NCBI GenBank assembly: GCA_041745595.1 | Contig: JBGTIR010000065.1 | Span: forward strand, 1-41,023 | Source: Planctomycetaceae bacterium | Lineage (GTDB): Bacteria > Planctomycetota > Planctomycetia > Planctomycetales > Planctomycetaceae | Direction of reading: 5' to 3' | Length of the DNA stretch: 41,023 nt | Shown: positions 1,867-21,379 of the stretch, piece by piece | Layout of the letters: each line of letters opens with the position of its first letter | How positions within the stretch are numbered: the first letter of the stretch is position 1 | Position numbers and translations under genes: made by a program | Notes under the pieces: model-generated | The model's input: only the letters and a program-made list of their open reading frames with translations | Told to the model about the DNA's origin: nothing | The model's database searches: none

Positions 1867-1964
1867 GCAACACTCCGGAGACTATGCGACGGGGAACACG
1901 TGCGCCGATCCCCGGGCTTCGCCCGCCGCCGCGGGAGCAAGACGCGGTCGAGCATCACCATGCG

Positions 1965-3404: not shown

Positions 3405-5662
3405 GGTGCCTCCGCCGGCTGAATGCGAATCGCAATGGGTTCGGTGACAACAATATCGACAATATCTCTCGGCTGCGCCACTTCCGTGGCCCGCTTGAGC
3501 TGGGCCTCGGCGGCGGCGACCCGTTCGTTGGCCGCTTTGAGACGGGCCGTGAGGTCGGCCACGACCTGCTCGGACTCCGGCTTTTGATCGGCCGGCGCGG
3601 CTTGGGCGGTCTCGACCGCCTGCTTCAATTGGGTCTCCAGTTCCGCCGCCTCCCGCTGCGCCTGCTCACGGGCGGCTGCGGCGACATCGACCGCTTCCGG
3701 ATGATGGCGGTACTTCGCCACGGCTCCGCCGTGGAAGGCGATCAGATAGTCTCCCGGCGGCACCTTGAGCGCGGCGAGATCGAGGACCGCCTCGGAGCGC
3801 TCGGCGGTGAGCGACAGTTCGAACGCGGGGACGCGCTCGAAACCAGCGCCAATCGCCCGCATCTGCATCGTCGCGCCGGAGAACTCGCTGCGGCGCGTGT
3901 GGACCAGCGGGATCGTCAGTTTCTCGCCGGTCTTCGCTTCGAGCCGGGGTATTTCAGGAGCGATCGTCAGCGGGGCCAGATCGATGCCGCTGACGGAGAC
4001 CGGCACGTCGGCCAGCAGCCGCGGACTGGGAATCTCGCCCCACGAATCGGGAATCGGCCACGCCACCGAAGCCATGCGGCAGGGGCGCGTCACCGCCTGT
4101 CCGCCGATCTGCGAACGACCGACGAACGCCGCATTGGTGAACGCCCGCGGCGCATCGGCCCGGGCGGAGATCAGCATCAGGCCGCGGGACTGACCCGCCG
4201 GAATCTTCAGTCCGTGAGCCGTCACGCCCTCCGGCAGCCCTTCCATCGCCAGCTCAATGTCGCCGTCGAATCCGTCGCGGCGAAACGCCACGACTTCCAG
4301 AGCCATCGTGGCTCCGCCGCGCAGAGCGATCGGCTTCGACAGCGCGTTGCGGTCGCCGTTGCGGAGTTCCATGTGCAGCGCCCAGGCGACGAGCGCGAAA
4401 TCGGGCGCCGCCCGGCGAACGACGAGCCGATAGACGTTCCCCGGATCGTTGCGCGTTCCGCCGAACAGGTCAGTCATCTGCAGACGGTAGAGTCCATCGT
4501 GCGGAATCACCAGTTTGCCGAGAATGTCGGACGTTCCCGCGTTGTAGGGAGGACCGTCGTAGGCGTAACCGTTGCTGGAAACCTTCACCGGACTGGGAAC
4601 GTCGTTGAGTTCGACGACGTCGGTCAGCGTTTCTCCGTCCGCCGTGCGGACAACGTGCTGCACGAGGAGGGCCGGGTCGGTCGGCAGGCCGAAGCGTTCG
4701 GAGGCGACCTCGATCCACCATTCCTCCCCTTGTTTCGCTTCGAACTCGAACACGTCGACATCGGCCGCCGGATAGAAACTCCCCGCGATGTCGCAGGGAA
4801 GCGTGATCCGCTGGGCGCGGGGAGCATCGTTGTTGGGTTCCTGCTCGAGGGCCTCGGCCCGCGCGGCCAGTCCGACTGGAGGCCAGGAGAACGCGTTGAC
4901 GGGCTGCGTCGCGGGTTGCCGGACGATCGGAGCCTCCGCGGGTTGCTCCCACAGACCGAGGCGGTAGTAGAACGCCGCCCCTCCCTTGAAGGTCAATTCA
5001 TGGACTTTGATCACGTACGTGCCGTCCTGCGGAACCGCGAAGTCGAGCACTCCTCCGCGGCGTTCGACCAGCAGGTCGCGTCCCTCGGCGTCGGCGATGA
5101 TGACCGTGGCGTTGAGTTTGGAGTCGATGCCCCGCGACGCACAGTCGACGACGATCCGCTGTCCCTGCCGGGCGGGGAACGTGTAGAAGTCGACCGCCCG
5201 GTCGGAGATCGTGGCGTTGCAGACCGAGTTGAGCGGCAATTCGAGCGCCGTCGCCAGCGACGTGTTGGGCTGCGTCCGCACGACTTCGGCCAGCGTTCCG
5301 ACGGAAAACACCCGCGACGAGGACAGGCCCAGCCGCGTCATGACGCGGGCTTCGTAAATCCCCGCCGGGCAATCCTCGGCGACGTGGACCAGGTACTTGT
5401 TCGGCACCGGGTTCCCTTGCGCATCGAGCAGGCGGGCGGCGGTGATCCGCGCGTCGGAAAAGACCAGTTCGCCGGCGTCGTCGAGGTGTTCGCCGCCGAT
5501 CGTGACCTCAAAACGGGTTCCGACCTGGCCCCCCATCGGCAGCGTGGTCAGCAACCGCGGCGCCGGCAGGCAGACCGACTGCGCGAACGCGGCGGATGCA
5601 CTCCCCAGAAGCGCGGTGCTCAGCGCGAGCCGAAGCAACGAATTTGTGACGCAAGTTGTCAT
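3401..5662 (-). CDS. large secreted protein with pre-peptidase C-terminal (PPC)-like beta-sandwich repeats and a C-terminal coiled-coil/Ala-Glu-rich tail
   Basis: 753 aa. N-terminal signal peptide (LLRLALSTALLGSASAAFAQ). Repeated Cys-containing beta-sandwich segments and an AEQ-rich C-terminus. Lies between the DUF1549/DUF1553 and DUF1501 genes with an 8-nt and a -4-nt junction, so it is operonic. Confidence 0.7.
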   Translation of the reverse strand: MTTCVTNSLLRLALSTALLGSASAAFAQSVCLPAPRLLTTLPMGGQVGTRFEVTIGGEHLDDAGELVFSDARITAARLLDAQGNPVPNKYLVHVAEDCPAGIYEARVMTRLGLSSSRVFSVGTLAEVVRTQPNTSLATALELPLNSVCNATISDRAVDFYTFPARQGQRIVVDCASRGIDSKLNATVIIADAEGRDLLVERRGGVLDFAVPQDGTYVIKVHELTFKGGAAFYYRLGLWEQPAEAPIVRQPATQPVNAFSWPPVGLAARAEALEQEPNNDAPRAQRITLPCDIAGSFYPAADVDVFEFEAKQGEEWWIEVASERFGLPTDPALLVQHVVRTADGETLTDVVELNDVPSPVKVSSNGYAYDGPPYNAGTSDILGKLVIPHDGLYRLQMTDLFGGTRNDPGNVYRLVVRRAAPDFALVAWALHMELRNGDRNALSKPIALRGGATMALEVVAFRRDGFDGDIELAMEGLPEGVTAHGLKIPAGQSRGLMLISARADAPRAFTNAAFVGRSQIGGQAVTRPCRMASVAWPIPDSWGEIPSPRLLADVPVSVSGIDLAPLTIAPEIPRLEAKTGEKLTIPLVHTRRSEFSGATMQMRAIGAGFERVPAFELSLTAERSEAVLDLAALKVPPGDYLIAFHGGAVAKYRHHPEAVDVAAAAREQAQREAAELETQLKQAVETAQAAPADQKPESEQVVADLTARLKAANERVAAAEAQLKRATEVAQPRDIVDIVVTEPIAIRIQPAEAP

Positions 5663-5669
5663 ACGAAGC

Positions 5670-7991
5670 CTAATGATTGAAGAGGAATTCTTTCGTGTTC
5701 ATCAACGCCCACAGCAGATCTTGAAAGTTCTCGCGGGCCGCCCGCTGCGCATCGACCGGGTTGCCGGCGGCATCGAGGGGTGTTTCGGCGAGATACTCGA
5801 GCGCCGTTTGTAGCTCGTCGGCCCGCGGCTCGCGGGCGAAAGCCGCCCGGTACAGTTCTCGCACCTTCTCTTCCGGCAGGCGCTGATCCTGAGCCAGACG
5901 CAGGGCGCGGCCCGTCGGGCTGGCGAGCTTGGATTTCAGGTCGTTCGCGTTGATCAGATGCAGACTCTGCGCCAGGCTCGACGACTGCACCCGCTCGCAT
6001 TCGCAGACGCTCTCTCCGTCGGGCCGGCCGAACACTCTCAAAAACGGCGACGAGCGGTTGTAGCTGTTGTCGGGGAGCGCCACCGCGCGGGTGCCCGGCG
6101 GCAGGTTGGCGAAGTCCGTCTGCGTCCCGGCCAGCCGGTCGATGGCGTCGAGCAGCACCTCGGCCTGCAGCCGCCGCGGATAGTAGCGCGAATAATTCTG
6201 CCGGTCGCCGAGGTTGTGTTCGTTGGGAATCGCGCTCAACTGATACGCGTTCGAGCGGACGAGCGTCCGGACGAGTTCCTTCAGATCGAACCCGCTGGCA
6301 ATGAAGTGGTGCTCCAGGGCCGCGAGCAATTCGGGATTCGTGGGGGGGTTCGAATCGCGGATGTCGTCCTCGGGTTCGATCAATCCCCGCTGGAAAAAGT
6401 GCTTCCAGTAACGATTGACCAGGGCCCGGGCAAAGAAAGGATTGCTGGGAGAACTCATCCAGTCGGCCAGCTTGAGTCGGGGGTCTTCGTCCGCGGCGAT
6501 CGGAGGAATCGCGTCCCCCAGCGCGGCCGGCGGCAGCGCGGCGCCCGTCTTGATGTTCGTCGCCGTGGCGATGCCGCGCTGATGAAAAATCAGATCTTCG
6601 CCCCGCGTGCCCGACGGCTTGCGGCCGACCCGCGTGAAGAACGCCACCAGCGAGTAGTAGTCGTCCTGGCTCCAGCGTTCGAAGGGATGATGGTGACACT
6701 GGGCGCACTGCATCCGCACCCCCAGGAACAGTTGCGCCACGTCTTCGATCTGGTTCTTCGGTTCCTGCACGCGCTTGTACCAGGCCACGGGCGGGTTGCC
6801 GATGACGGTCCCCGTGGCGGCCAGCAGTTCCCGCACGAACTGGTCGTAAGGCTTGTTGGCCAGCAGACTGTCGCGAACCCAGGCGTGAAACACGAAGTTC
6901 GACACCAGATCGCTGGCGTCGTCCCGCCGGTTCTTCAGCAGCGCGGTCCATTTGTTGGCAAAGAAATCGGCGTAATCGGGGCTGCGGAGGAGTTCGTCGA
7001 TCGCCCGTTCGCGTTTGTCGGGTTCCGTGCTCGCCAGGAACGCGGCGACTTCCTCCTCAGTCGGCAGTCGCCCGCCGATGTCGAGCGAGACGCGCCGCAG
7101 AAACGTGGCGTCGTCGCAGACGGGCGACGGCGGAATTCCGAGTTCTTTCAGATTCGCGAAGACCGCCTCGTCCACGAAGTTCTTCGCCGGAGGAAGTTCG
7201 CCCACGGGCGCTCCCAGCGGAATCACCGCGTTGAAGACCGAGACATGCCCCTGATAACGGACCATCACGGCGACTTTTCCCGTGAGATCGAGAATCGTCA
7301 CCCGGCCGCTGCCGGAGACTTCGGCCATCGCGGCGTCGTTCGATTCGAACAGCGCCCGCTCGGTGACGTCGCGAACGCTGCCGTCGGAGTAACGGGCCAG
7401 CGCTGTCAGTTGCTGTTCGCCGCCGCGTTGCAGCGACCCCCGCGCGGGCTGAACCTCGAACCCGATGAGCCGCGGTGCTGATTCGGCATCGAGCGGCGCG
7501 CCCTGGCGGATCCAGTCGCGGAGCACGCCGTACCCGGACGACTCCGCGGGAAGTCGAATTCCGCCGCCGTGGGGCACCCGCCCGGACGCCTTCCGCAACA
7601 ACAGGCTCTGCTCGGGCTGGGTGAACGACAGCCGCCGTCCGCGAGTTTCCGAAACGAGCTGTTCGTAATCGTCGCGGGGCTCGAAACCGAGCAGCGACAA
7701 CTGGAACCCCTTCTGTCCGCCCCCCGCCTTCGCGTGGCAGACCCCCAGATTACAGCCCGCCTTGGTGAGCACCGGAATCACGTCGTTGAAAAAGCTGACG
7801 GTTGGTTCCGACTCCCCGGCCAGGACCGGCGCGGCCGGAGGCACGATCAGAGCGAGGACGACCGCCGAGAGGAGGCGCAGCGCCGTTCTCCGCGGATTCC
7901 GGCGTTCAAGAACAGGCACAGCAAGTCTCTCCGTCACAATCCCAGGGGATTCGGAACCGACGCCCCTGCCGGCCACGAGAGCCGACACCAA
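5670..7991 (-). CDS. DUF1549/DUF1553 protein with N-terminal Planctomycete cytochrome-c-like domain (PSCyt/PSD1 family)
   Basis: 773 aa. Conserved N-terminal heme-binding-like motif FNDVIPVLTKAGCNLGVCHAKAGGGQ, followed by the long DUF1549 and DUF1553 regions. The ORF-track start is a TTG at 7991, so the true start is uncertain. Confidence 0.8.
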   Translation of the reverse strand: MVSALVAGRGVGSESPGIVTERLAVPVLERRNPRRTALRLLSAVVLALIVPPAAPVLAGESEPTVSFFNDVIPVLTKAGCNLGVCHAKAGGGQKGFQLSLLGFEPRDDYEQLVSETRGRRLSFTQPEQSLLLRKASGRVPHGGGIRLPAESSGYGVLRDWIRQGAPLDAESAPRLIGFEVQPARGSLQRGGEQQLTALARYSDGSVRDVTERALFESNDAAMAEVSGSGRVTILDLTGKVAVMVRYQGHVSVFNAVIPLGAPVGELPPAKNFVDEAVFANLKELGIPPSPVCDDATFLRRVSLDIGGRLPTEEEVAAFLASTEPDKRERAIDELLRSPDYADFFANKWTALLKNRRDDASDLVSNFVFHAWVRDSLLANKPYDQFVRELLAATGTVIGNPPVAWYKRVQEPKNQIEDVAQLFLGVRMQCAQCHHHPFERWSQDDYYSLVAFFTRVGRKPSGTRGEDLIFHQRGIATATNIKTGAALPPAALGDAIPPIAADEDPRLKLADWMSSPSNPFFARALVNRYWKHFFQRGLIEPEDDIRDSNPPTNPELLAALEHHFIASGFDLKELVRTLVRSNAYQLSAIPNEHNLGDRQNYSRYYPRRLQAEVLLDAIDRLAGTQTDFANLPPGTRAVALPDNSYNRSSPFLRVFGRPDGESVCECERVQSSSLAQSLHLINANDLKSKLASPTGRALRLAQDQRLPEEKVRELYRAAFAREPRADELQTALEYLAETPLDAAGNPVDAQRAARENFQDLLWALMNTKEFLFNH

Positions 7992-8135
7992 CGCCCGAAT
8001 CTTCCCATGATACCCATCAGCGACAGTTGATGCAAATCCTGATTGCGTCGAGGGTATCGCAGGGTGTACGTTGAAGTTTCGTGTATGGCGCAGCGGCTCC
8101 GATAAAGGATGCTACTCGGCAGGACATGTCCGCTT

Positions 8136-8726
8136 ATGGACGAAACTTCGCTCAGTTTGCTCGCCCGTGTTCGCCAAACCACCGATTCGACATCGTGGGA
8201 GCGACTGGTTGATTTGTACGCGCCGCTGATGCGGGATTGGCTGCGGACATACGGCGTGCAAGATGCCGATGCCGAGGACTTGATTCAGGAGGTGTTGACC
8301 GTCGTCGCTCGGGAAATTGCTCATTTCGATCACAATCAGCGGTCGGGAGCATTTCGTAATTGGTTACGAGCAACGCTCGTTCACCGCTTGCGGCATTTTT
8401 GGCGGTCAAACAGCCACAGGATGGTTGCCGCAGGGGGCACCAGCGTGCTGGAACAACTCAACCAGCTTGAGGACGAAACCAGCCAGCTCAGCCGCGTCTG
8501 GAACGAGCAACACGATCGCGAAGTGATCGCGCGGCTCGTCGAAATCGTGAGGCCGACATTCCTCCCCAAGACTTGGGAGGCATTTCATCGGCAAATGTTC
8601 GAGGGCCATCCCCCCGAACAGGTGGCCGTGGAGCTTGGGATGCCGCTCGGTTCGGTTTATATGGCCCGTCACCGGGTGCTCAACGCCCTGCGCCGGGAAG
8701 CGGCAGGGTTGATCGACTCGCCGTAA
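8136..8726 (+). CDS. ECF-type RNA polymerase sigma factor (sigma-70 family)
   Basis: Sigma-70 region 2 (DLIQEVLTVVAREIAHFD...FRNWL) and region 4 (PEQVAVELGMPLGSVYMARHRVLNALRRE). The start is taken at ATG 8136 (MDETSLSLLARV, the usual ECF N-terminus) with an AGGA 12 nt upstream; an alternative ATG lies at 8109. Confidence 0.85.
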   Translation: MDETSLSLLARVRQTTDSTSWERLVDLYAPLMRDWLRTYGVQDADAEDLIQEVLTVVAREIAHFDHNQRSGAFRNWLRATLVHRLRHFWRSNSHRMVAAGGTSVLEQLNQLEDETSQLSRVWNEQHDREVIARLVEIVRPTFLPKTWEAFHRQMFEGHPPEQVAVELGMPLGSVYMARHRVLNALRREAAGLIDSP

Positions 8727-8843
8727 CATGGCGGCGGACGGAAATTTGGAGTTAATTTCCGCAGCCGGCGTGAGGAATCCGCGGTTGCTGCACTCTCTCT
8801 TTGTGTGTAGCCGCCACTCGCCTCTCCGAATCGAGATCGACCC

Positions 8844-10838
8844 ATGACCGACGAATCCGCAGCACATCCGAAAAGCGATCAGCTTGTAGCGTTCGGACTG
8901 GGAAAACTCGATCCGGACAAGGCCACTGAGATCGCGGAACACCTGGACCAGTGTCGCGAATGTGCAGAAACCATAGTCAGTTTGCAGGACGATACGTTCA
9001 TGGGGCTGGTCCGCCAATCGCCGGCGCCACCTCTCTTCCCCGCTGGCAGCGAGGATTCGCCGCCCCCAGTCGAGCAACCAGAGCATCCTCTAGCCACGTT
9101 GGTCGTCGCTTCCGGCGAGACGGAAACAGGAAGCACGCCGGTCGAGTTGCCGCGCGAATTGCGTGAGCATCCGCGGTACGAAGTCGCGGAGTTGATCGGG
9201 CGCGGGGGAATGGGCGATGTGTATAAAGCACAGCACAAGCTGATGAATCGGCCGGTGGCGCTGAAGGTCATCAAGCCGGAACTGGTTCAGAACGAATCCG
9301 CCGTGCGCCGCTTTCACCGCGAGGTGCAAGCCGCCGCGCGGCTGCATCACGGAAACATCGTCGCCGCCTACGACGCCGAGCAGGCGGGCCATCTGCACTT
9401 CCTGGTGATGGAGTTCGTGGACGGAGTGGATCTCGACCAGGTGGTCCGGCAGCGCGGCGCGCTGCCGGTCGAACTCGCCTGCGACTACATCCGTCAGGCG
9501 GCCGCCGGTTTGCAGCACGCCCACGAGCTGGGCATGGTGCATCGCGACATTAAGCCGCACAACCTGATGGTGACCGCCTCGGGCGAGGTGAAGATTCTCG
9601 ACTTTGGGCTGGCCAGCTTCGTGAGCGAGTTGGCGACCGAGGAACTGATCGATGCGAACGATTCATCAACCCAGGAGCCGGCCGCCCCGCGCCACACGCT
9701 GGAGCAGCTGACGCAAATGGGCACGATGATGGGCACGCCCGACTACATCGCCCCGGAACAGGCCGTCAACGCACACACGGCCGACATTCGCGCCGACATC
9801 TACAGCTTGGGATGCGCGTTCTACACGCTGCTTGCCGGTCGCTCACCGTTCGGACAGGGATCGGTGCTCGATAAGATCAAGGCTCACGCCGAGCAAACCG
9901 CACCGCCACTCGCTGACTTTCGCAACGATGTGCCGGCCGAGGTCGAAGCCATATTACGGAAGATGATCGCCAAGGATCCGGCCGAGCGATTTCAAACTCC
10001 GGCAGAGGTTGTGGCCGCTTTGGCAGCCTGTCGCTCGGTCACGCCGAAGGATTCCGCAATGAGTGGCGGGGGGCGGCGTCCCAGGCGGCTCGTCGGGATG
10101 GCCGGCATGTTCCTGGCCGCAGTCGCTGCGGCCATCATTTTCTACATCCAAACGAACAACGGCGTCGTACGGATCGAAGTCGTTGACGAAAGCCTGCAGG
10201 TGACGCTCAACGGACGGACGATCACGATGAAAGACGGCGACACGCCGCTGACGATCCGCGCCGGCGCTCCCAAGCTCCTCGTCCGCCGCGGCGACTTCTC
10301 CTTTGAGACGGAGAGTTTTCAACTCCGCCGCGGCGACACCATCGCGCTCAGGGTGGAGCTGCTGCCCGGCGAAATCGTCGTGCAGAAAGATGGCCAGCGT
10401 TTCGGGGCGAAGCCGCTCCCCGACGAACAACGCCTTATCCCTTCCATCGCAGATAGCGGGCCGAGCGCCCTAGGGCTGCTATTGCGGGACCGGTCGCGGA
10501 ACCTCCGCCAGATTGGCGGCGCACTCCTCGAATATCAAAAGGCGCACGGCAGTTTCCCTCCTGCTGCAAATTCGCCGGAGGCCTTCGACCCCAATGGCCG
10601 CCCGCACCTGAGCTGGCGGGTCCACCTGCTGCCGTTCCTGGGGCAGCAAAAACTCTACGAAAAGTTCCGCCTCGACCAGCCGTGGGACAGCGAGCACAAT
10701 AAGCCGCTGCTCGCCGAGATGCCCGCCGTTTATGGGCCTGGGCCCGACCCCGCGCGAACGCAGCTCCTCGCCGTCGTCGGCCAGGGTACCGCCTATGAAG
10801 GGCAGGCCGGACTAAAGCTGAGCGACTTACACGACTGA
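8844..10838 (+). CDS. Ser/Thr protein kinase with N-terminal anti-sigma-like zinc finger, one TM helix and a C-terminal DUF1559 (H-X9-DG pilin-like) N-half; ends at an in-frame TGA
   Basis: H-x3-C-x2-C motif (HLDQCRECAE). Hanks kinase motifs: GRGGMGDVYKA, HRDIKPHNLMV, DFGLA, GTPDYIAPE. TM helix LVGMAGMFLAAVAAAIIFYI. DUF1559-like segment LRQIGGALLEYQKAHGSFPP...SWRVHLLPFLGQQKLYEKFRLDQPWDSEHN. The TGA stop falls where the Gly of the DUF1559 DGTSNT motif is expected. Confidence 0.8.
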   Translation: MTDESAAHPKSDQLVAFGLGKLDPDKATEIAEHLDQCRECAETIVSLQDDTFMGLVRQSPAPPLFPAGSEDSPPPVEQPEHPLATLVVASGETETGSTPVELPRELREHPRYEVAELIGRGGMGDVYKAQHKLMNRPVALKVIKPELVQNESAVRRFHREVQAAARLHHGNIVAAYDAEQAGHLHFLVMEFVDGVDLDQVVRQRGALPVELACDYIRQAAAGLQHAHELGMVHRDIKPHNLMVTASGEVKILDFGLASFVSELATEELIDANDSSTQEPAAPRHTLEQLTQMGTMMGTPDYIAPEQAVNAHTADIRADIYSLGCAFYTLLAGRSPFGQGSVLDKIKAHAEQTAPPLADFRNDVPAEVEAILRKMIAKDPAERFQTPAEVVAALAACRSVTPKDSAMSGGGRRPRRLVGMAGMFLAAVAAAIIFYIQTNNGVVRIEVVDESLQVTLNGRTITMKDGDTPLTIRAGAPKLLVRRGDFSFETESFQLRRGDTIALRVELLPGEIVVQKDGQRFGAKPLPDEQRLIPSIADSGPSALGLLLRDRSRNLRQIGGALLEYQKAHGSFPPAANSPEAFDPNGRPHLSWRVHLLPFLGQQKLYEKFRLDQPWDSEHNKPLLAEMPAVYGPGPDPARTQLLAVVGQGTAYEGQAGLKLSDLHD

Positions 10839-10883
10839 ACCTCCTTCACGGCCTATGTCGTCGATGCCGGGCGCGAGAAAGCC

Positions 10884-13412
10884 GTGCCGTGGACGAAGCC
10901 TGAGGATCTCCCCTTCGAAGCCGAGGACCCGATCCGGGCGTTCGGCAAGTCGGACTTCGGCGACGAGTTCATCGCGCTCTTGGCCGACGATTCCCTGAAG
11001 GCCGTCCCGTACGACACCGCCCCCGAATCGCTGCGGGCCTTGTTCACTCGCGCGGCGGGGGACAAGTTCGATGAGTTGGCGAAACGGACGACGCCGCTCC
11101 CCACCCCGGCAAGTTCTCAGCCCGCGCCGTTGACGATCGGCATGAATGACGAATTCGGAATGCTTTTCGAAGGACGCCTTGTGGCGCCGGCCGAACTGTC
11201 CCGCCGGCTTATGGAAGCCTTAAAGGAGAATCCCGATCGCGAGGTGGTCATCGACTTGCCCAAGAGACCATGGACCGTCGCCGGGCACGTCGATCAGCTC
11301 GAGCAAATTGCCCGCATCACGGGGGCCAGGTGGATCACCCGGCCAGCGTGGTCCCAGATTCGCATCGTCTTCGGGGTCGAGAACTCCGGCCAGCAGACGC
11401 TCGACATCCAGGCGCCGGGCTACAGCGTCTCCGGGTTCGTGAAGGATCAGCTTCCCAACGTGCGGGAGGCCATTACGAAGAACAAGAACTTACCGGTGCA
11501 GATCGAGGTCGCGGAACACATCAGGTTTTCCGATCCGAAAATCGCCGAGGGGATCGAGGAAATCCGCCGCGTTGCCGAGGCGGCCGGGGCGGACGTGCGT
11601 GTCCTACGGACGCGACGGGCGACGGACGACAAGCCGGCGTTGCCGCGGGACGCTCTGGCCGTCTACACCTTCGAGGAAGACACGTTCTTCCGCACAGAGG
11701 GTCGGTCGCGGGTGCGCGATGTCTCTGGCAACGGTCACGACGCATCCCTCGAGGACGACCAGTTCGTTCATTCCCCCGACGGCAAGGTCGGCGGAGCCCT
11801 GCGCTGTAATCGCAAAGTTCTCACACTGCCTCTGCCGAAACTTCGTATCCCGGTGGCGCTGCTCGCGGGTCGCGACGAATACACGATGGCGCTGTGGGTC
11901 CGCGACTCCGGCAAGGCAACCGTTCCCAGCGGCAAGTCGGTCCGCACGGTTTATCAGGAAGGATTCCCGCAGGGCGCGAACGCCGCGTATCCTCTGTCGG
12001 TGAACTTCGTCGACCAGCGAATGCGAATCTTTTCTCTCAACGAACTTGTCGAGCAGAATCCCCCTGGGGGCGAGGTGGCCATCAACGGCGAGGTGTTCAC
12101 CGACGAAGACACGATCCCAAAGGATGAGTGGTTCTTCCTGGCTTTGACGCTGGTCAAGAAGGGGGACGCGCACGTGCTGCGCGTGACCATCGACGACCGA
12201 ACCACCGAGCATCCCTTCATCCCGATGCCTGGGCTTGAAAACGGCTTCGGCCTGCTCGGCGGCATCGACGGCATGATCGACGAAGTCGCCTTCTTCGGCC
12301 GGGCCTTCACGGAGCGGGAAATCGAGACGCTGCGGCAACACGGTTTGTGGAGAATTCGGCCGCCGGACAGCGCACAGCCTCGACATGATGACCAATCGAT
12401 CATGGAGATCCCTGGCCTCAAGGGGCAGGCGGGCTCGATCGAGCGACTGGCACCGGCCCGCAAACTCGAGGGACACACCGGGCCGGTAAAAGATGTCGCC
12501 TATTCGCCGAACGGCAAATGGATTGCCAGTGCCAGTGGGTGGCCGAAAGGCGACCAGACGCTGAGGATTTGGGACGGCAGCACAGGCCAGCCGGTACATC
12601 GCCTCGAGGGACACACCGACAATGTGACGTGCGTGGCATTTTCCCCCGACAGCCGGTATGTCGCCTCGGGATCCGCCAACAAGGACAAGTCGATACGGCT
12701 TTGGGACGTGGTGCAGGGACGGGAGGTCCGCGTCTTCCCAGGGCCTGCGTACGTGGACGATTTGGAAATCTCCGGCGATGGTGAAATCGTCGTCGCCCTC
12801 TTTGCTCATGAACTCGTCGTGTGGGATCTTCACGCCGGGGAGGAACGGCTGCGGATCGCGTTGGGGGAAACGAAGAACCGCGGAATGGCGCTGCTTTCCG
12901 GACAGCGGGCCCTAACCGGGGACGACAAAGGGAAGGTAGCGATCTGGGATCTGAAGGATGGCCGGAAAGTGGGGACGTTTGATTCCTATCCGGGTTTCGT
13001 CGACGAATTCGCCGTCTCGCCCGATGGCAAAACGGCGCTCGTCGTGGGGACCGGAATCGGCATGCTGTACTGGGAGATCGACACTGGCCGAGTGCTCCGC
13101 CGTTTCCCGGAGGCGACGTTTGGCAAGGATGTCGGGTTTTCACCGGATGGTCGTTTTGCCGCCGTCGCCCGCATCGGGTCGTTGCAGCTATTTGAACTTG
13201 AAACTGGCAAAATGTGGCTAGCTCCCGAAGACTTTGTGGGGGGCGGTTACGGATTTTGGTCGGTCGCCTTTTCTACGGATGGTCGTTCGCTCGTGGCGGG
13301 CGGCGGTTATGGGTCCAACTCCGCGGACGGCAAGGCGCTGCAAGGCGACTATGCCCTCCGCCTCTGGCAATTGCCGGAAAGCGTCTGGCCGACATCCCCG
13401 CCGCCAGAGTAG
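10884..13412 (+). CDS. DUF1559 C-half + unknown middle region + 7-bladed WD40 repeat protein (same frame as upstream kinase ORF; GTG start at 10884 if independent)
   Basis: Begins ..AVPWTKPEDLPF and FGDEFIALLADDSLKAVPYDTAPESLRALFTRAAGDKFDE, the C-terminal consensus of DUF1559. C-terminal WD40 repeats (GHTGPVKDVAYSPNGKWIASAS..., LEGHTDNVTCVAFSPDSRYVASGS..., IRLWD). Both ORF starts (8844 and 10884) are divisible by 3, so it is in the same frame as 8844-10838. Confidence 0.7.
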   Translation: MPWTKPEDLPFEAEDPIRAFGKSDFGDEFIALLADDSLKAVPYDTAPESLRALFTRAAGDKFDELAKRTTPLPTPASSQPAPLTIGMNDEFGMLFEGRLVAPAELSRRLMEALKENPDREVVIDLPKRPWTVAGHVDQLEQIARITGARWITRPAWSQIRIVFGVENSGQQTLDIQAPGYSVSGFVKDQLPNVREAITKNKNLPVQIEVAEHIRFSDPKIAEGIEEIRRVAEAAGADVRVLRTRRATDDKPALPRDALAVYTFEEDTFFRTEGRSRVRDVSGNGHDASLEDDQFVHSPDGKVGGALRCNRKVLTLPLPKLRIPVALLAGRDEYTMALWVRDSGKATVPSGKSVRTVYQEGFPQGANAAYPLSVNFVDQRMRIFSLNELVEQNPPGGEVAINGEVFTDEDTIPKDEWFFLALTLVKKGDAHVLRVTIDDRTTEHPFIPMPGLENGFGLLGGIDGMIDEVAFFGRAFTEREIETLRQHGLWRIRPPDSAQPRHDDQSIMEIPGLKGQAGSIERLAPARKLEGHTGPVKDVAYSPNGKWIASASGWPKGDQTLRIWDGSTGQPVHRLEGHTDNVTCVAFSPDSRYVASGSANKDKSIRLWDVVQGREVRVFPGPAYVDDLEISGDGEIVVALFAHELVVWDLHAGEERLRIALGETKNRGMALLSGQRALTGDDKGKVAIWDLKDGRKVGTFDSYPGFVDEFAVSPDGKTALVVGTGIGMLYWEIDTGRVLRRFPEATFGKDVGFSPDGRFAAVARIGSLQLFELETGKMWLAPEDFVGGGYGFWSVAFSTDGRSLVAGGGYGSNSADGKALQGDYALRLWQLPESVWPTSPPPE

Positions 13413-13479
13413 ATTAACCTCCTCCGAGAATTGCCAGGCTCGAAAGAGTGGATCACCGCCGTGGCCTAGACTGACCGAC

Positions 13480-14577
13480 ATGAAACGACGGGAATTCCTC
13501 CAGGGCGGATTAGCACTGACGCTCGGCAAATCGCTGCTGGCGGCACTGCCCGAGGAGCGTCTCGACAAAGCCGCGGCGGTTCTAGCCGAAGCCGTCCAGA
13601 GTGGGCAAGTCGCCTCGGCCGCGCTGACCGTGGTGCAGCAGGACGTCTCGTTCTCGCGTCATTTCGGAAAGGCTGCTTCCGACGACGCGATGTTTCTGCT
13701 CGGATCGATTTCGAAACCGATCTGCATCACGGCGTTGATGACGCTCTTCGATCGTGGTGAATTTCGACTCGACGATCGCTTGACCAGGTTTCTGCCGAAA
13801 TTTACCGGTGATGGACGAGACCGGGTCACGCTGCGACACTTGCTGACGCATGTCTCCGGGCTGCCGGATCAGTTGCCGGAGAACGAAACGCTGCGAAAAC
13901 GACACGCGGGTCTCGAAGAGTTCGTCGCCGGAGCCGTGCGCACGCCCCTGCACTTTGCGCCCGGTGCTCGATATCAATACTCCAGCATGGGAATCCTGCT
14001 GGCCACGCACGTCGCTGAATTGATCGGCGGAGTCGAGATTCGCGAATTCGTGGAGAAAGCCGTCTTTCAGCCGCTCAAGATGCGGCACTCGGCGCAGGGG
14101 CTGGGACGGTTTCAACTGGTTGATCTGGTGGCTTGTCAAACCGAACGGGCCGCACCCGAATCGGGAGCCGGCGACCCGACGGCGAAGGACTGGGACTGGA
14201 ACAGCGCCTACTGGCGCGGGCTCGGAGCTCCCTGGGGCGGCACGCATTGCTCCGCGCCGGACGTCGCGCGATTCCTGGCGGAATTCCTGCAGCAACGGGG
14301 CGACGTCGTCAAACCGGCAACCGCCAGGTTGATGATCGACAACCAGAACGGCAAAGACCTCACACCGCGAGGCCTGGGCTTCAACGTCGGCGCGACGGCA
14401 GGCAGCCCGGGGTGTTCGCAGAAAACCTTCGGACATACGGGATCGACCGGAACGATCGCCTGGGCGGATCCCGCGACGGAGACGATCTGCGTGGTCTTGA
14501 CGTCGCTCCCAGGACGAGCCGTCCAGCCGCACCCCCGCGAACTGGCCTCGGCGCACGTGGCCTCGCTCGAACGTTGA
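13480..14577 (+). CDS. serine hydrolase, beta-lactamase/transpeptidase-like family (Tat-secreted)
   Basis: Tat signal MKRREFLQGGLALTL. SxxK active-site motif (GSISKP), a Y-x-S/N-like motif (YQYSS) and an HTG-type KTG-equivalent (FGHTGSTG). Length is about 365 aa from ATG 13480. Confidence 0.8.
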   Translation: MKRREFLQGGLALTLGKSLLAALPEERLDKAAAVLAEAVQSGQVASAALTVVQQDVSFSRHFGKAASDDAMFLLGSISKPICITALMTLFDRGEFRLDDRLTRFLPKFTGDGRDRVTLRHLLTHVSGLPDQLPENETLRKRHAGLEEFVAGAVRTPLHFAPGARYQYSSMGILLATHVAELIGGVEIREFVEKAVFQPLKMRHSAQGLGRFQLVDLVACQTERAAPESGAGDPTAKDWDWNSAYWRGLGAPWGGTHCSAPDVARFLAEFLQQRGDVVKPATARLMIDNQNGKDLTPRGLGFNVGATAGSPGCSQKTFGHTGSTGTIAWADPATETICVVLTSLPGRAVQPHPRELASAHVASLER

Positions 14578-15088
14578 TCGGAATGCGTGCCCCGCGGCCG
14601 TTGTCGAACAGACCGCGAGGGCGACATGCACTCCTCCGTCGATAAAGCGATGGGCGATCTTCGCACCGGTTGTGAATCTCCGCGGCGGAGGCCGACTCGG
14701 CGAAATCCGCGGGCCGAATCCCCGGGAGGTGTCGTCACCCATGGCCGGGGTTGAGGCGACTCGCGAAAAAAACTCGACCTGACGGAAATTTCCGCGAACA
14801 TTTTCGAGCCGGCGCGCATCAGTTCTATGACCGGCGATGGCGGTCATCGCCGCCCAATAATCGTGACACGGATGATTTCACTTCAGCGATCCCGAAAATC
14901 ATGACGCTCCGACGGCTCCATCTCAGTTCCAAACGAAGCGATACGGTCCGTATCGCCGCGTACCTCATACGTCTCCAGATCCGGAATTATCGATTCGGAT
15001 CGGCGGGAAGTCTGGAACGGGGCGGCGAGAACTCCCCGTATCCCCTGCGCACGTGACATCGGCCACACGCCTCCGCGAGCTTTCCAAA

Positions 15089-15121
15089 GCCCGGTGTCAC
15101 GCAAAGGACGCCGGGCTTTTT
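15089..15121 (+). terminator. possible intrinsic terminator/insulator hairpin followed by T5, 33 nt upstream of the first tRNA
   Basis: GCCCGG(15089-15094) pairs with CCGGGC(15111-15116), with an inner GTC/GAC pairing, followed by TTTTT 15117-15121. The loop is larger than in a textbook terminator. Confidence 0.3.
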
Positions 15122-15154
15122 CGTTGCGCCGCAAGCGGACGATCAAAACCCAAT

Positions 15155-15226
15155 GGGCTGGTAGCTGAGACGGTTTAGCGCCTGGCTGAAGACCAGGAGA
15201 GAAGGATTCGAGCGCCTTCCAGCCCA
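15155..15226 (+). tRNA. tRNA-Phe (anticodon GAA)
   Basis: Acceptor GGGCTGG/CCAGCCC+A. D stem GCTG/TAGC with a GG-containing loop. Anticodon stem CCTGG/CCAGG, loop CTGAAGA (identical to the E. coli Phe loop). T arm AAGGA-TTCGAGC-GCCTT has one A:G mismatch at 53:61. No encoded CCA. Confidence 0.65.
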
Positions 15227-15273
15227 CTTTCCAAACCAGTGCATGACTGGAGACAGACAGCGTGCGCACACAG

Positions 15274-15346
15274 GGCCCGTTCGACTTCTCGTGAGGTTGC
15301 CGGTCTTTCAAGCCGGCCAGGTTGGGTTCGAATCCCACACGGGTCA
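15274..15346 (+). tRNA. tRNA-Glu (anticodon TTC)
   Basis: Acceptor GGCCCGT/ACGGGTC+A (G2:U71 wobble). Glu-like 3-bp D stem GAC/GTT with a GAGG-containing loop. Anticodon stem CCGGT/GCCGG, loop CTTTCAA. T loop TTCGAAT. Confidence 0.55.
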
Positions 15347-15378
15347 ATCGCCTGTTTCGACGACGGCCATCCCGATTC

Positions 15379-15449
15379 CGCTTGGTGGTGTAACGGAAGC
15401 ACATCGTTCTGATACGGCGAAAGCGGTGGTTCGACTCCACCCCGAGCGA
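15379..15449 (+). tRNA. tRNA-Ile (anticodon GAT)
   Basis: Acceptor CGCTTGG/CCGAGCG+A. D stem GTGT/GCAC, loop AACGGAA. Anticodon stem TCGTT/GGCGA (two G:U pairs), loop CTGATAC. T arm GGTGG-TTCGACT-CCACC. Confidence 0.6.
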
Positions 15450-15511
15450 CTGAGCACAGGAGCAACGCATGGCACAACCGCAGACGGACAAACGCAACCA
15501 CGTCCTCAATC

Positions 15512-15583
15512 GGGGTCGTGGTGTAACGGCAGCACAGCGAGCTTTTACCTCGCCCGGTGGGGGTTCGAATCCCTCCGGCCCCA
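15512..15583 (+). tRNA. tRNA-Lys (anticodon TTT)
   Basis: Acceptor GGGGTCG/CGGCCCC+A. D stem GTGT/GCAC, loop AACGGCA. Anticodon stem GCGAG/CTCGC, loop CTTTTAC. T arm GGGGG-TTCGAAT-CCCTC. Confidence 0.75.
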
Positions 15584-15596
15584 TGGCGAGACACGC

Positions 15597-15669
15597 GGGA
15601 TCCAGGTGTTAGCGGCAGCACACTCGGTTCTTACCCGAGCGGGTGATGGTTCAAGTCCATCGGATCCCA
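15597..15669 (+). tRNA. tRNA-Lys (anticodon CTT)
   Basis: Acceptor GGGATCC/GGATCCC+A. D stem GTGT/GCAC. Anticodon stem CTCGG/CCGAG, loop TTCTTAC. T arm GATGG-TTCAAGT-CCATC. Only 13 nt after the previous tRNA. Confidence 0.75.
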
Positions 15670-15680
15670 CTCAATGTCAA

Positions 15681-15752
15681 GCACTGGTCGTTTCGCGGCC
15701 AAGACTCCGCACCCGTAATGCGGCAACGTGGGTTCGAGTCCCACCCGGTGCT
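15681..15752 (+). tRNA. tRNA-Thr (anticodon CGT), non-canonical C33
   Basis: Acceptor GCACTGG/CCGGTGC+T. D stem GTTT/AGAC, loop CGCGGCCA. Anticodon stem CCGCA/TGCGG, loop CCCGTAA (C at position 33 instead of the invariant U). T arm GTGGG-TTCGAGT-CCCAC. Confidence 0.55.
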
Positions 15753-15788
15753 CTGCACTGTGTTCTTTGACAATTCGACGGATGCAGC

Positions 15789-15859
15789 GCACCCATGACG
15801 TAGCGGCAGCGTACCGTCTCGCCAGGGCGGAGGTGCGGGTTCGACTCCCGCTGGGTGTT
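15789..15859 (+). tRNA. tRNA-Gly (anticodon GCC), non-canonical C33 and G1:U72
   Basis: Acceptor GCACCCA/TGGGTGT+T. D stem ACGT/GCGT, loop AGCGGCA. Anticodon stem CCGTC/GGCGG, loop TCGCCAG. T arm GCGGG-TTCGACT-CCCGC. Confidence 0.5.
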
Positions 15860-15924
15860 CTTCGTTGCGGTCAGCGATCAGCGGTCGGGAATCTTTTCGA
15901 TGGCGGACGGCGCCGAGCAAAACT

Positions 15925-15998
15925 CAGCGTGTGGGATAGTCTGGGAATCCGCGTGCCTCGGGCGCACGAGAGCGTCGGTTCAAATCCGACCACGCTGA
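15925..15998 (+). tRNA. tRNA-Pro (anticodon CGG)
   Basis: C1:G72 first pair, as is typical for bacterial tRNA-Pro (CAGCGTG/CACGCTG+A). D stem GGAT/ATCC. Perfect anticodon stem CGTGC/GCACG, loop CTCGGGC with G37. T arm GTCGG-TTCAAAT-CCGAC. Confidence 0.75.
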
Positions 15999-16010
15999 CT
16001 GAGGATTGTT

Positions 16011-16085
16011 TGCGGCGGATCCCGTGCTGGTACGGGAGGGCGACTGTTAATCGCCTCGGCGCAGGTTCGATTCCTGCCGCCGCAG
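16011..16085 (+). tRNA. tRNA-Asn (anticodon GTT)
   Basis: U1:A72 and discriminator G, as in bacterial tRNA-Asn (TGCGGCG/CGCCGCA+G). D stem TCCC/GGGA. Anticodon stem GGCGA/TCGCC, loop CTGTTAA (identical to the E. coli Asn loop). T arm GCAGG-TTCGATT-CCTGC. Only 12 nt after tRNA-Pro. Confidence 0.75.
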
Positions 16086-16095
16086 CTTGAATCAG

Positions 16096-16178
16096 GGAAG
16101 TCATCCGGCCGGATGAGGAGCCTGTCTCGAAAACAGGTGCGGGTTACACCGTTGTGGGTTCGAGTCCCACGGCTTCCG
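16096..16178 (+). tRNA. tRNA-Ser (anticodon CGA), long variable arm
   Basis: 83 nt. Acceptor GGAAGTC/GGCTTCC+G. Anticodon stem CCTGT/ACAGG, loop CTCGAAA (matches the E. coli Ser loop). About 16-nt variable arm. T arm GTGGG-TTCGAGT-CCCAC. 10 nt after tRNA-Asn. Confidence 0.7.
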
Positions 16179-16199
16179 CTGCTTGTGAACCAGTCTCAG

Positions 16200-16270
16200 G
16201 GGCTCATGGTCCAACAGAAAGACATCGGTCCTGCAAACCGAGGATTCGGGTGCGAGTCCCGATGAGTCCA
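16200..16270 (+). tRNA. tRNA-Ala (anticodon TGC), non-canonical (C33, T-loop TGCGAGT, no GG in D-loop) but with the G3:U70 Ala identity pair
   Basis: Acceptor GGGCTCA/TGAGTCC+A gives G3:U70. Anticodon stem TCGGT/ACCGA, loop CCTGCAA. T arm TCGGG-TGCGAGT-CCCGA. The D arm is short (GTC/GAC) and lacks G18G19. Confidence 0.5.
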
Positions 16271-16285
16271 CTTTCGATGCGAGTC

Positions 16286-16358
16286 GGTCCTGTCGCCCAG
16301 CGGCCAAGGCAGCTTCCTTACAAGAAGCAGATCGGTGGTTCGAGTCCACCCAGGACCA
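16286..16358 (+). tRNA. tRNA-Val (anticodon TAC)
   Basis: Acceptor GGTCCTG/CAGGACC+A. D loop AGCGGCCAA. Anticodon stem GCTTC/GAAGC, loop CTTACAA. T arm GGTGG-TTCGAGT-CCACC. Confidence 0.75.
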
Positions 16359-16444
16359 TTGCGGAATCGACTGTCTGTGTTCGTGATCGGAGACGAGGTT
16401 GAGAACGGATTCACGACGAACAATGGACGACTGACGAAGAACTC

Positions 16445-16519
16445 GTCCTCGCGGAGCAGTCCGGAGTGCTCGCCACCCTGTCACGGTGGAGATCGGGGGT
16501 TCAAATCCCCTCGGGGACG
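16445..16519 (+). tRNA. tRNA-Asp (anticodon GTC)
   Basis: Acceptor GTCCTCG/CGGGGAC+G. Perfect D stem GAGC/GCTC. Anticodon stem CCACC/GGTGG, loop CTGTCAC (identical to the E. coli Asp loop). T arm GGGGG-TTCAAAT-CCCCT. Confidence 0.7.
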
Positions 16520-16620
16520 CTTTTCACAACACGACCCGGTGCGAAATCCGCATAGGCAGCAAACACGCGGGCTGTCGTGATCGGGAAACTCGACCCTCGC
16601 TTGAGTCACTGACAACAGAC

Positions 16621-16702
16621 GCGTCGGCTGGGCATTGGCGAGCCCTCGGGGCCGTAACCCCCGCGCCGCGAGGCTGTGCAGGTTCAACTCCTGCTCGACG
16701 CA
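16621..16702 (+). tRNA. tRNA-Tyr (anticodon GTA), long variable arm, C33
   Basis: 82 nt. Acceptor GCGTCGG/TCGACGC+A. D stem GGGC/GCCC. Anticodon stem CGGGG/CCCCG, loop CCGTAAC. 14-nt variable arm with a GCC/GGC stem. T arm GCAGG-TTCAACT-CCTGC. Confidence 0.6.
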
Positions 16703-16784
16703 CTGGCAAGAGAAAGGCACGTCGCCCACGATCGGAGCTGACTTTCTGACGACGGACGATGTTTCACTTTCTCGCCACAGACGA

Positions 16785-16869
16785 GGCCAAGTGGTGCAAC
16801 CGGTAGACACGCGACGCTCAGAACGTCGTGCCCCTTGCGGGCTTGGGAGTTCGACTCTCCCCTTGGTCA
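16785..16869 (+). tRNA. tRNA-Leu (anticodon CAG), long variable arm
   Basis: 85 nt. Acceptor GGCCAAG/CTTGGTC+A. 3-bp D stem GTG/CAC. Anticodon stem CGACG/CGTCG, loop CTCAGAA. Variable arm with a GCCC/GGGC stem. T arm GGGAG-TTCGACT-CTCCC. Confidence 0.7.
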
Positions 16870-16889
16870 TTTGCCGATTGGAATTTCGA

Positions 16890-16958
16890 CGCGGGTGGGC
16901 CAGTGCCCATTGGAGCCTCATAAGCCTCGATCGCCGGGTGCGACACCCGGACCCGCCA
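16890..16958 (+). tRNA. tRNA-Met/Ile2-like (anticodon CAT), degenerate/non-canonical
   Basis: 69 nt. Six of seven acceptor pairs (CGCGGGT/ACCCGCC+A). Anticodon stem GGAGC/GCCTC with one A:C mismatch, loop CTCATAA. T arm CCGGG-TGCGACA-CCCGG. Compact D arm without GG. It shares the TGCGA T-loop/GG-less D-loop combination with the Ala tRNA. Confidence 0.35.
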
Positions 16959-17049
16959 TTTGGATCGGACCGAGTCCGCAAACTCAGGCAAAGCGATCTC
17001 ATCGCGTAACGGGTGTTTGCAGGTTCGACGCCCGTCTGGGAAGACGCAC

Positions 17050-17137
17050 GGAAGGTAGCCGGATACGGTTGGCCGGGCCGCATTGCTAATGCGGTTCTCC
17101 CGCAAGGGAGATGAGGGTTCGAATCCCTTGCCTTCCG
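17050..17137 (+). tRNA. tRNA-Ser (anticodon GCT), long variable arm
   Basis: 88 nt. Acceptor GGAAGGT/GCCTTCC+G. D stem CCGG/CCGG. Anticodon stem CCGCA/TGCGG, loop TTGCTAA. 18-nt variable arm with a CTCCC/GGGAG stem. T arm GAGGG-TTCGAAT-CCCTT. Confidence 0.7.
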
Positions 17138-17148
17138 CTGGAAAGAAG

Positions 17149-17176
17149 CATTCAGCATTCAGCAGTCAGCGGTCAG
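17149..17176. repeat. imperfect tandem heptamer repeat (CATTCAG)2-CAGTCAG-CGGTCAG in a tRNA spacer
   Basis: Four consecutive 7-nt units seen directly in the sequence between tRNA-Ser(GCT) and tRNA-His. Confidence 0.5.
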
Positions 17177-17227
17177 CCAACAACGGCACGACTGGCCAAC
17201 GACAAAGGACAAAGCGCACCCAATCAC

Positions 17228-17302
17228 GGTGTTCGTGGTGTGGTGGTTTCCGCACGTCGGCTTGTGACGCCGAAGGGAGGGGTTCGATTCCCCTCGGACA
17301 CC
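17228..17302 (+). tRNA. tRNA-His (anticodon GTG) with encoded G-1
   Basis: An extra 5' G (17228) opposite discriminator C73 is the His hallmark. Acceptor GTGTTCG/CGGACAC. D stem GTGT/GCAC. Anticodon stem TCGGC/GCCGA, loop TTGTGAC. T arm AGGGG-TTCGATT-CCCCT. Confidence 0.75.
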
Positions 17303-17376
17303 CATCGCCAGGCGAGCGGGCGGAGACAGGAACGACCTCGTTCGTTTCGCCCTTCCCCTTCGACTGTCTGCTGAAC

Positions 17377-17446
17377 GCGAGCGTGCTCCTGGGAGAGTCA
17401 GCCGTCTCCAAAACTGCTGTATGAGGTTCGAATCCTCACGCTCGTG
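17377..17446 (+). tRNA. tRNA-Trp (anticodon CCA), short D arm, one anticodon-stem mismatch
   Basis: Acceptor GCGAGCG/CGCTCGT+G (G1:U72). Anticodon loop CTCCAAA (identical to the E. coli Trp loop), stem GCCGT/ACTGC with one mismatch. T arm TGAGG-TTCGAAT-CCTCA. 70 nt. Confidence 0.55.
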
Positions 17447-17709
17447 CTTGAGGAGCTCTCTGCCGTCAACGGGCGGCGTTCAGAAAGACTCTCCGATGGC
17501 GGCACGATACCCCGATGCGGTCGCGGGACGAACTCCTCCCCGGTTTCGAACGACCGCCTGTGTGCTTGCATCCGCGACACAGTTCGGCGGGGTACGAAAT
17601 CCTCGTTCCTGGAGTATGAGGGAGAGCATGCAACTCTGCGAAGACGAGCTGCTCTGATCTCTCCAAATTCCGCGAACCTCTCGATCGATTCTCCCGTCTC
17701 TTGTCTTCA

Positions 17710-17726
17710 GACTTCTGACAGAAGTC
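17710..17726. other. perfect 17-bp palindrome GACTTCTG-A-CAGAAGTC (candidate protein-binding site)
   Basis: Seen directly in the 373-nt gap between tRNA-Trp and the degenerate tRNA-like element. A 1-nt loop excludes a simple hairpin, so a dyad-symmetric operator-type site is more likely. Confidence 0.3.
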
Positions 17727-17819
17727 CGTTGAGGTCGTTCGTCCAGCGGCGTGCGAGTCGCCCGGCAGGGTTTGGCGTCGCGCGTTCCGAACATGGAATC
17801 TGACCGGCGACGTCAACCA

Positions 17820-17891
17820 GCTCGGTTCGCTCAATGGTAGAGCACCAGACGATCACTCTGGCTGTTGCGGGTTCGAGTCCCGCACCGACAC
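17820..17891 (+). pseudogene. degenerate tRNA-like element (canonical D and T arms, aberrant acceptor stem and anticodon loop)
   Basis: D arm GCTC-AATGGTA-GAGC and T arm GCGGG-TTCGAGT-CCCGC are canonical. Acceptor GCTCGGT versus ACCGACA pairs at only 5 of 7 positions. Anticodon stem CCAGA/TCTGG, loop CGATCAC (G33, A34). Confidence 0.4.
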
Positions 17892-21364: not shown

Positions 21365-21379
21365 AGATTGGACTGGCTC

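Follow-up and report, generated by a model that had tools for sequence, protein, structure and literature searches.

A probable recent nonsense interruption in a modular receptor kinase gene of a planctomycete

Organisation of the locus

The stretch of DNA analysed here, hereafter the window, is an entire NCBI contig of 41,023 bases with a GC content of about 64%. Its neighbouring genes are typical of Planctomycetota, with a DUF1501 gene accompanied by a PSCyt2/PSD1 protein, and the best protein matches are found in Pirellulaceae MAGs. Two ORFs on the plus strand, at 8844-10838 (664 aa) and 10884-13412 (842 aa), are recorded as two distinct proteins. The first-pass annotation had read them as one long kinase-WD40 gene of 1520 aa, in one frame and without any stop between them other than a single TGA. 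Translation confirms this reading of the frame; the sole internal stop of 8844-13412 is the TGA at 10836-10838, which is codon 665, and the protein fused across it has a length of 1522 aa. The sequence at 10830-10844 is cac gac TGA acc tcc, continuing with ttc acg to 10850, hence the stop stands in the context GAC TGA ACC, and it falls on the column of a conserved Gly in the motif D-G-x-x-x-T. The translation around it is ...GLKLSDLHD*TSFTAYVVDAGREKAVPWTKPEDLPF..., and the junction of the fused protein is ...LSDLHD-X-TSFTAYVVDAGR.... In-frame third-position GC stays between 0.78 and 0.93 throughout, also across the stop, and the pair is more than two adjoining genes sharing a frame by chance.

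Directly 5' of the kinase gene lies a gene for an ECF-type sigma factor at 8109-8726 (+; Pfam Sigma70_r2, E = 6e-9), whose start is either 8109 or 8136, the latter being the choice of the gene callers. The upstream ORF of the pair ends at the premature TGA; it is supported by Pfam and NCBIfam matches and is co-linear with its homologues from residue 1. It starts with an anti-sigma-like zf-HC2 N-terminus at 8880-8966 (residues 13-41; Pfam 7.8e-4), where NCBIfam gives a weak anti-sigma match to residues 14-63, followed by a Ser/Thr kinase domain at 9177-9995 (residues 112-384; Pfam Pkinase 4.2e-52). A single transmembrane helix is placed at about 10083-10154 (residues 414-437) by a lone peak in the Kyte-Doolittle profile. 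As this is the only strongly hydrophobic stretch of the protein, and as it comes just after the residues RRPRR, we place the kinase inside the cell and the remaining approximately 1085 residues outside.

The outer part begins with a DUF1559-like module at 10479-11099 (residues 546-752 of the fused protein), delimited by family alignment and an AlphaFold2 model. This module is the one that is split by the stop, its first 119 residues being encoded by the upstream ORF. The rest of the gene, 857 codons and a TAG at 10839-13412 (+), was assigned by BLASTP co-linearity with single-chain homologues. It holds the remainder of the DUF1559-like module and then two more modules common to the homologues P0001, P0006 and P0011, along with a weak LamG-like region at about 11844-12323 (Pfam Laminin_G_3, 3.2e-3) and a WD40 propeller at about 12405-13409 (Pfam WD40, 7.1e-30).

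The order of sigma factor and kinase is repeated at the nearest homologue locus, L002, where a 196-aa Sigma70_r2 gene has the same place (sigma gene at 220-810 and kinase from 950 onward, the counterpart in the window being 8109-10154 on the plus strand). An ECF sigma gene followed by a kinase that carries zf-HC2 suggests a fused anti-sigma/Ser/Thr kinase regulator of the adjoining sigma factor.

Homologues across the stop column

A search with the fused protein returned many single-chain relatives of about 980-1850 aa with a kinase and a DUF1559 module, often along with WD40. To compare the module itself we aligned 16 sequences, that is the window and 15 homologous modules from 14 proteins, and conservation is unbroken on both sides of the stop, with neither gap nor linker. 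The stop had been placed at the position of a conserved Gly, and this holds well, since the column is Gly in 12 of the 15 protein modules, the other three having N, D and P.

Protein databases cannot show interrupted genes, and a DNA-level scan was therefore added. A degenerate DNA pattern, based on the motif 30 bases after the stop, was run on genomes of GTDB and metagenomes of JGI, neither of which includes that of the window; the pattern is independent of gene calls. Three loci were found, all of them with Gly and none with a stop at the column. Over the total of 18 homologous modules (15 from proteins and three from the DNA pattern scans) the column thus holds 15 Gly and one each of N, D and P, and all 18 are uninterrupted.

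P0002 is the nearest of the relatives, with 82% identity over the module; it has HDGTSFTAYV with the codon GGG, and its differences from the window in the flanking sequence are mostly synonymous on both sides of the stop. An alignment of orthologues had been proposed as the way to find the Gly codon, and it gave GGG in this relative and an uninterrupted module in every case. A single change from GGA to TGA had been suggested; GGA is the sole one-step route to TGA from a Gly codon, and the codon of the nearest relative is GGG instead. Relatives at 90% identity or above were absent from the collection, both ORFs form singleton clusters, and an intact allele was not seen in the lineage.

The kinase family to which the gene belongs (P0001-P0024) is a pronounced mosaic in which the N-terminal kinase part is 50-74% identical, and the sets and orders of the extracytoplasmic modules differ. 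For example, two DUF1559-like modules occur in P0003, about 1.3 kb of additional sequence follows the module in P0002, and the middle modules of P0006 stand in a different order. As judged from these sequences, the mosaicism points to frequent shuffling of modules.

A typical DUF1559-like module of a planctomycete-type kinase is also encoded on a 7.6-kb contig (L003, CAYYUU010000322.1) filed under the MAG of an "uncultured Alcaligenaceae bacterium", and this contig is probably a binning contaminant in that MAG.

The DUF1559-like module

The Pfam model for DUF1559 (PF07596, SBP_bac_10) matches the upstream ORF with 66.1 bits (E 6.7e-18) and the fused module with 76.4 bits, the cutoff being 23.3. 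The alignment covers residues 551-626 (10494-10721), corresponding to positions 13-87 of the 268 in the profile, and it lies wholly upstream of the stop. It should be noted that the earlier claim of a stop inside the DUF1559 domain consequently rests on the family alignment and the structure model, both of which support it, and not on the Pfam match, which ends before the stop is reached. "DUF1559-like module" is for this reason the accurate label.

As modelled with AlphaFold2, the P0002 module forms a single compact domain (pLDDT 84, pTM 0.83). The Gly of the stop column is residue 120 in this model, and it is followed by strands at 125-129, 163-168 and 173-177 and by a helix at 182-193, which places three strands out of four, as well as the final helix, after the stop position. 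A Foldseek search of the module model against the PDB gave nothing below E = 1, that is no solved structure with the same fold, there was no NCBIfam match for the module, and the literature on DUF1559 that we found mentions the domain only in passing.

The module resembles the DUF1559 proteins of Planctomycetes in that its N-terminal third matches the model well above the cutoff, and in that the relatives keep the motif D-G-x-x-x-T at the stop position. It differs from them in being embedded in a kinase instead of forming a free-standing protein of about 300 aa. Free-standing DUF1559 proteins usually have an N-terminal prepilin-type cleavage/methylation motif and a C-terminal H-X9-DG motif. 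Pfam gave no N_methyl match for the products of the kinase gene, and the H-X9-DG companion motif was not encountered; the position at which most relatives show DG is DD in the window (ADDSLKAV versus ADGSV).

Recoding of UGA

An in-frame UGA inside a conserved domain is also what is seen in bacterial selenoprotein genes, and we considered whether the codon might be recoded, either as selenocysteine, by programmed read-through with a short and a long isoform, or as Gly according to genetic code 25. The stop sits exactly on a Gly column, as code 25 would give, and divergent tRNAs form a large array 4.3 kb further downstream. Further, the UGA is followed by A, a context in which termination is not at its strongest.

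The usage of stop codons in the contig speaks against recoding. TGA is the majority terminator, ending 12 of the 19 well-supported genes, and conserved profiles run up to it; the FTHFS (formate-tetrahydrofolate ligase) gene reaches profile position 555 of 556 before its TGA, and after the TGA of a ThuA-like gene comes the signal peptide of the next gene. An altered genetic code is ruled out by this stop usage and these conserved profile ends, and the GC content and planctomycete-like gene content are not those of Gracilibacteria. The in-frame TGA is the only one among approximately 30 contig genes. A search for other UGA-interrupted genes had been proposed, and nothing else of the kind was found in the contig; a six-frame scan for coding-like segments joined by one stop gave just the site at 10836 and antisense shadows.

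Three other same-frame pairs were inspected and set aside. The pair 19721-21364 and 21368-24889, with one TGA between, is two ordinary genes, as the ThuA profile ends with the first and a signal peptide starts from 21381 in the second. Those at 7479 and 28609 are antisense shadows of real minus-strand genes.

Selenocysteine is rejected on several grounds. The segment 10830-10910 folds at -25.6 kcal/mol, the mean for shuffled sequences being -25.1 (z = -0.16), and accordingly a SECIS-like hairpin is absent; in 10600-11200 Rfam, run with a permissive threshold, gave chance matches only, with no recoding element among them. Cys is absent from the column in all 18 homologous modules, and neither tRNA-Sec nor a UCA anticodon was called in the window by ARAGORN, at default as well as relaxed thresholds. 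In these respects (hairpin, Cys in homologues and tRNA-Sec) the gene differs from selenoprotein genes. The same absence of a called UCA anticodon disposes of a suppressor tRNA in the nearby array. Programmed read-through finds no support either; the stop is present in none of the 18 homologous modules, including those found at the DNA level, and no structure 3' of the stop exceeds chance. Taken together, recoding in any of its forms appears extremely improbable.

Support for the TGA base

A base-call, consensus or assembly error would leave an intact 1522-aa gene with GGA as the true codon, the T stemming from low coverage or G-to-T oxidative damage, for example. Such an error would account for a one-base difference at a strongly conserved Gly and for the perfect integrity of the downstream sequence, and the contig is metagenome-derived, with no close relatives for comparison. 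On the other hand, a Logan contig from run SRR28170463, made by another assembler, is 100% identical over 15,154 bases (window 571-15724), carries the TGA and is unbroken for kilobases on either side of it. This identity makes an artefact of the assembler less likely, and it should be read with the reservation that the NCBI and Logan contigs very probably come from one run, and are hence independent assemblies and not independent data. The remaining approximately 30 genes of the contig have neither stop nor frameshift, and the consensus therefore appears to be of good quality. When short-read assemblies have sufficient depth, wrong consensus bases are far rarer than genuine nonsense alleles. 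We regard an error as rather unlikely, and infer that the TGA base is real in the organism.

Age of the break and the downstream frame

The 857 codons downstream of the TGA hold no further stop, and with this base composition so long an open frame has a chance of 1e-10. A stop would arise from 3.1% of all single-base changes in these codons, which places the neutral divergence since the break below about 3.7% at the 95% level, counting substitutions only. As no further lesion is present, the event is recent. Within the module, dN/dS against P0002 is 0.131 upstream and 0.137 downstream of the stop. The equal values fit a recent break, and they fit continued translation of the downstream part equally well; with dS near 1, and thus near saturation, they do not discriminate between the two.

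Continued translation would be the case if the break had made two working genes, one for the truncated kinase and one for an 842-aa protein with its own initiation, through re-initiation at the GTG at 10884 or further downstream. The downstream frame is indeed fully open with coding-like GC3, its dN/dS equals that of the upstream part, and the gene callers of both NCBI and Logan give the downstream protein. Against this, GTG 10884 is a Val inside the conserved motif AVPWTKPEDL, and no Shine-Dalgarno-like sequence comes before it. The 842-aa product would begin with a fragment of a domain that could not fold, and it would have neither signal peptide nor transmembrane helix, yet the homologous region is extracytoplasmic. 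The first-pass annotation had named orthologues organised as two genes near 10884 as the arrangement that would speak against a single gene, and not one of the 120 best matches has its start just downstream of the break or its end just upstream of it. It seems very unlikely that the locus has been divided into two functional genes in this way.

A related reading is that the break itself is functional, either by low-level or regulated UGA read-through giving a sensor-less kinase along with the full-length receptor, or by separate re-initiation of the sensor half. The intact downstream frame and its unchanged dN/dS would agree with this, and nothing positive was found in its favour. We consider it highly improbable; if true, the locus would be a snapshot of the gain or loss of a sensor module in modular planctomycetal kinases.

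A recent nonsense interruption as the probable explanation

The first-pass annotation had left three options for the TGA. A recent nonsense mutation fits all the evidence, a sequencing error is less likely, and nothing came out in favour of programmed read-through. We therefore suggest that the locus is probably explained by an ordinary nonsense mutation of recent date, which interrupted a receptor kinase gene of the modular planctomycetal type.

In this explanation the locus would have been a single gene, coding for a Ser/Thr kinase that spans the membrane once and is paired with the ECF sigma factor. The cytoplasmic side would have carried the anti-sigma-like zinc finger and the kinase, and the approximately 1085 residues outside would have held the DUF1559-like module, the further modules, the LamG-like region and the WD40 propeller. 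A Gly codon, GGA or another GGN, would then have been changed to TGA at codon 665. Translation would now end at the TGA, keeping the kinase and its membrane anchor and losing 857 of the approximately 1085 outside residues. The truncated product would stop in the middle of a domain that presumably cannot fold without its remaining strands, leaving a misfolded stub outside the cell, and it would be without the LamG-like and WD40 sensor parts. The truncated kinase would have lost its signal input, and full-length protein, if there is any, would come only from low basal misreading of the UGA. The 842-aa downstream ORF would be a remnant and not an independent gene.

The locus shares several features with an ordinary bacterial nonsense pseudogene or truncated allele; there is one in-frame stop, the relatives are continuous, and homology runs in frame on both sides. 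As in an ordinary nonsense allele, recoding signals are absent, and the organism uses the stop codon as a normal terminator. It is unlike an ordinary nonsense pseudogene in being very young, without a second lesion in 857 codons, and in that the kinase and its anchor are complete, so that the truncated, input-less kinase may still be active.

Planctomycetal STKs have been described as single-span membrane proteins with a cytoplasmic Pkinase domain and periplasmic WD40 (Genome Biol Evol 2024, PMC11032199). The window resembles these membrane STKs in having Pkinase, a single transmembrane helix and C-terminal WD40, in that order. In the homologues these elements are on single chains; in the window, read-through of the TGA would be needed to join them into one. 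Further differences from the described STKs (PMC11032199) are the N-terminal zf-HC2, the adjoining ECF sigma gene and the embedded DUF1559-like module, and the interruption of the chain in the window precedes the WD40 part.

If the nonsense reading is right, the two recorded proteins of 664 aa and 842 aa would represent one interrupted gene, with the 842-aa entry as an artefact of gene calling. Provided that the base is real, this would be a kinase that has just been stripped of its extracytoplasmic sensor modules in this lineage, and a small example of rapid turnover in the expanded Ser/Thr kinase families of Planctomycetota. Beyond the correction of the annotation we ascribe little significance to it.

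Other features of the window

The tRNA array at 15155-17891 (+) comprises 19 tRNA genes within 2.7 kb; they share one strand and cover 17 amino acids, and a 20th member, a tRNA-Met at about 16890-16958, was called at the relaxed threshold only. Many of these tRNAs are divergent; 13 reach the Rfam gathering score, and the scores range from 28 to 60 bits. The flanks of the array hold no integrase or phage gene, and blastn of the array against phage genomes gave generic single-tRNA matches only.

The last tRNA of the array, at 17820-17891 (+), has the anticodon loop C-G-A-U-C-A-C, with G at position 33 in place of the near-universal U. A base is missing from its 3' acceptor strand, which also contains mismatches. 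Even so, the tRNA reaches 45 bits with the Rfam tRNA model; it may be a pseudo-tRNA. It was also considered as an opal suppressor and rejected, as the UCA is one base out of register and both ARAGORN and the Rfam alignment give AUC.

A 233-aa ORF at 14883-15584 (-), called in the Logan contig, has no Pfam match and overlaps the tRNA genes for Phe, Glu, Ile and Lys; it is probably a spurious call. Finally, two large adjoining genes at 28006-34040 (-) encode a 1177-aa UvrD-helicase with a PD-(D/E)XK nuclease and a 937-aa PD-(D/E)XK nuclease, a pair that resembles the AddA/AddB recombination helicase-nuclease. Their ORFs overlap by approximately 310 bases, and the true start of the downstream 1177-aa ORF is therefore probably later.
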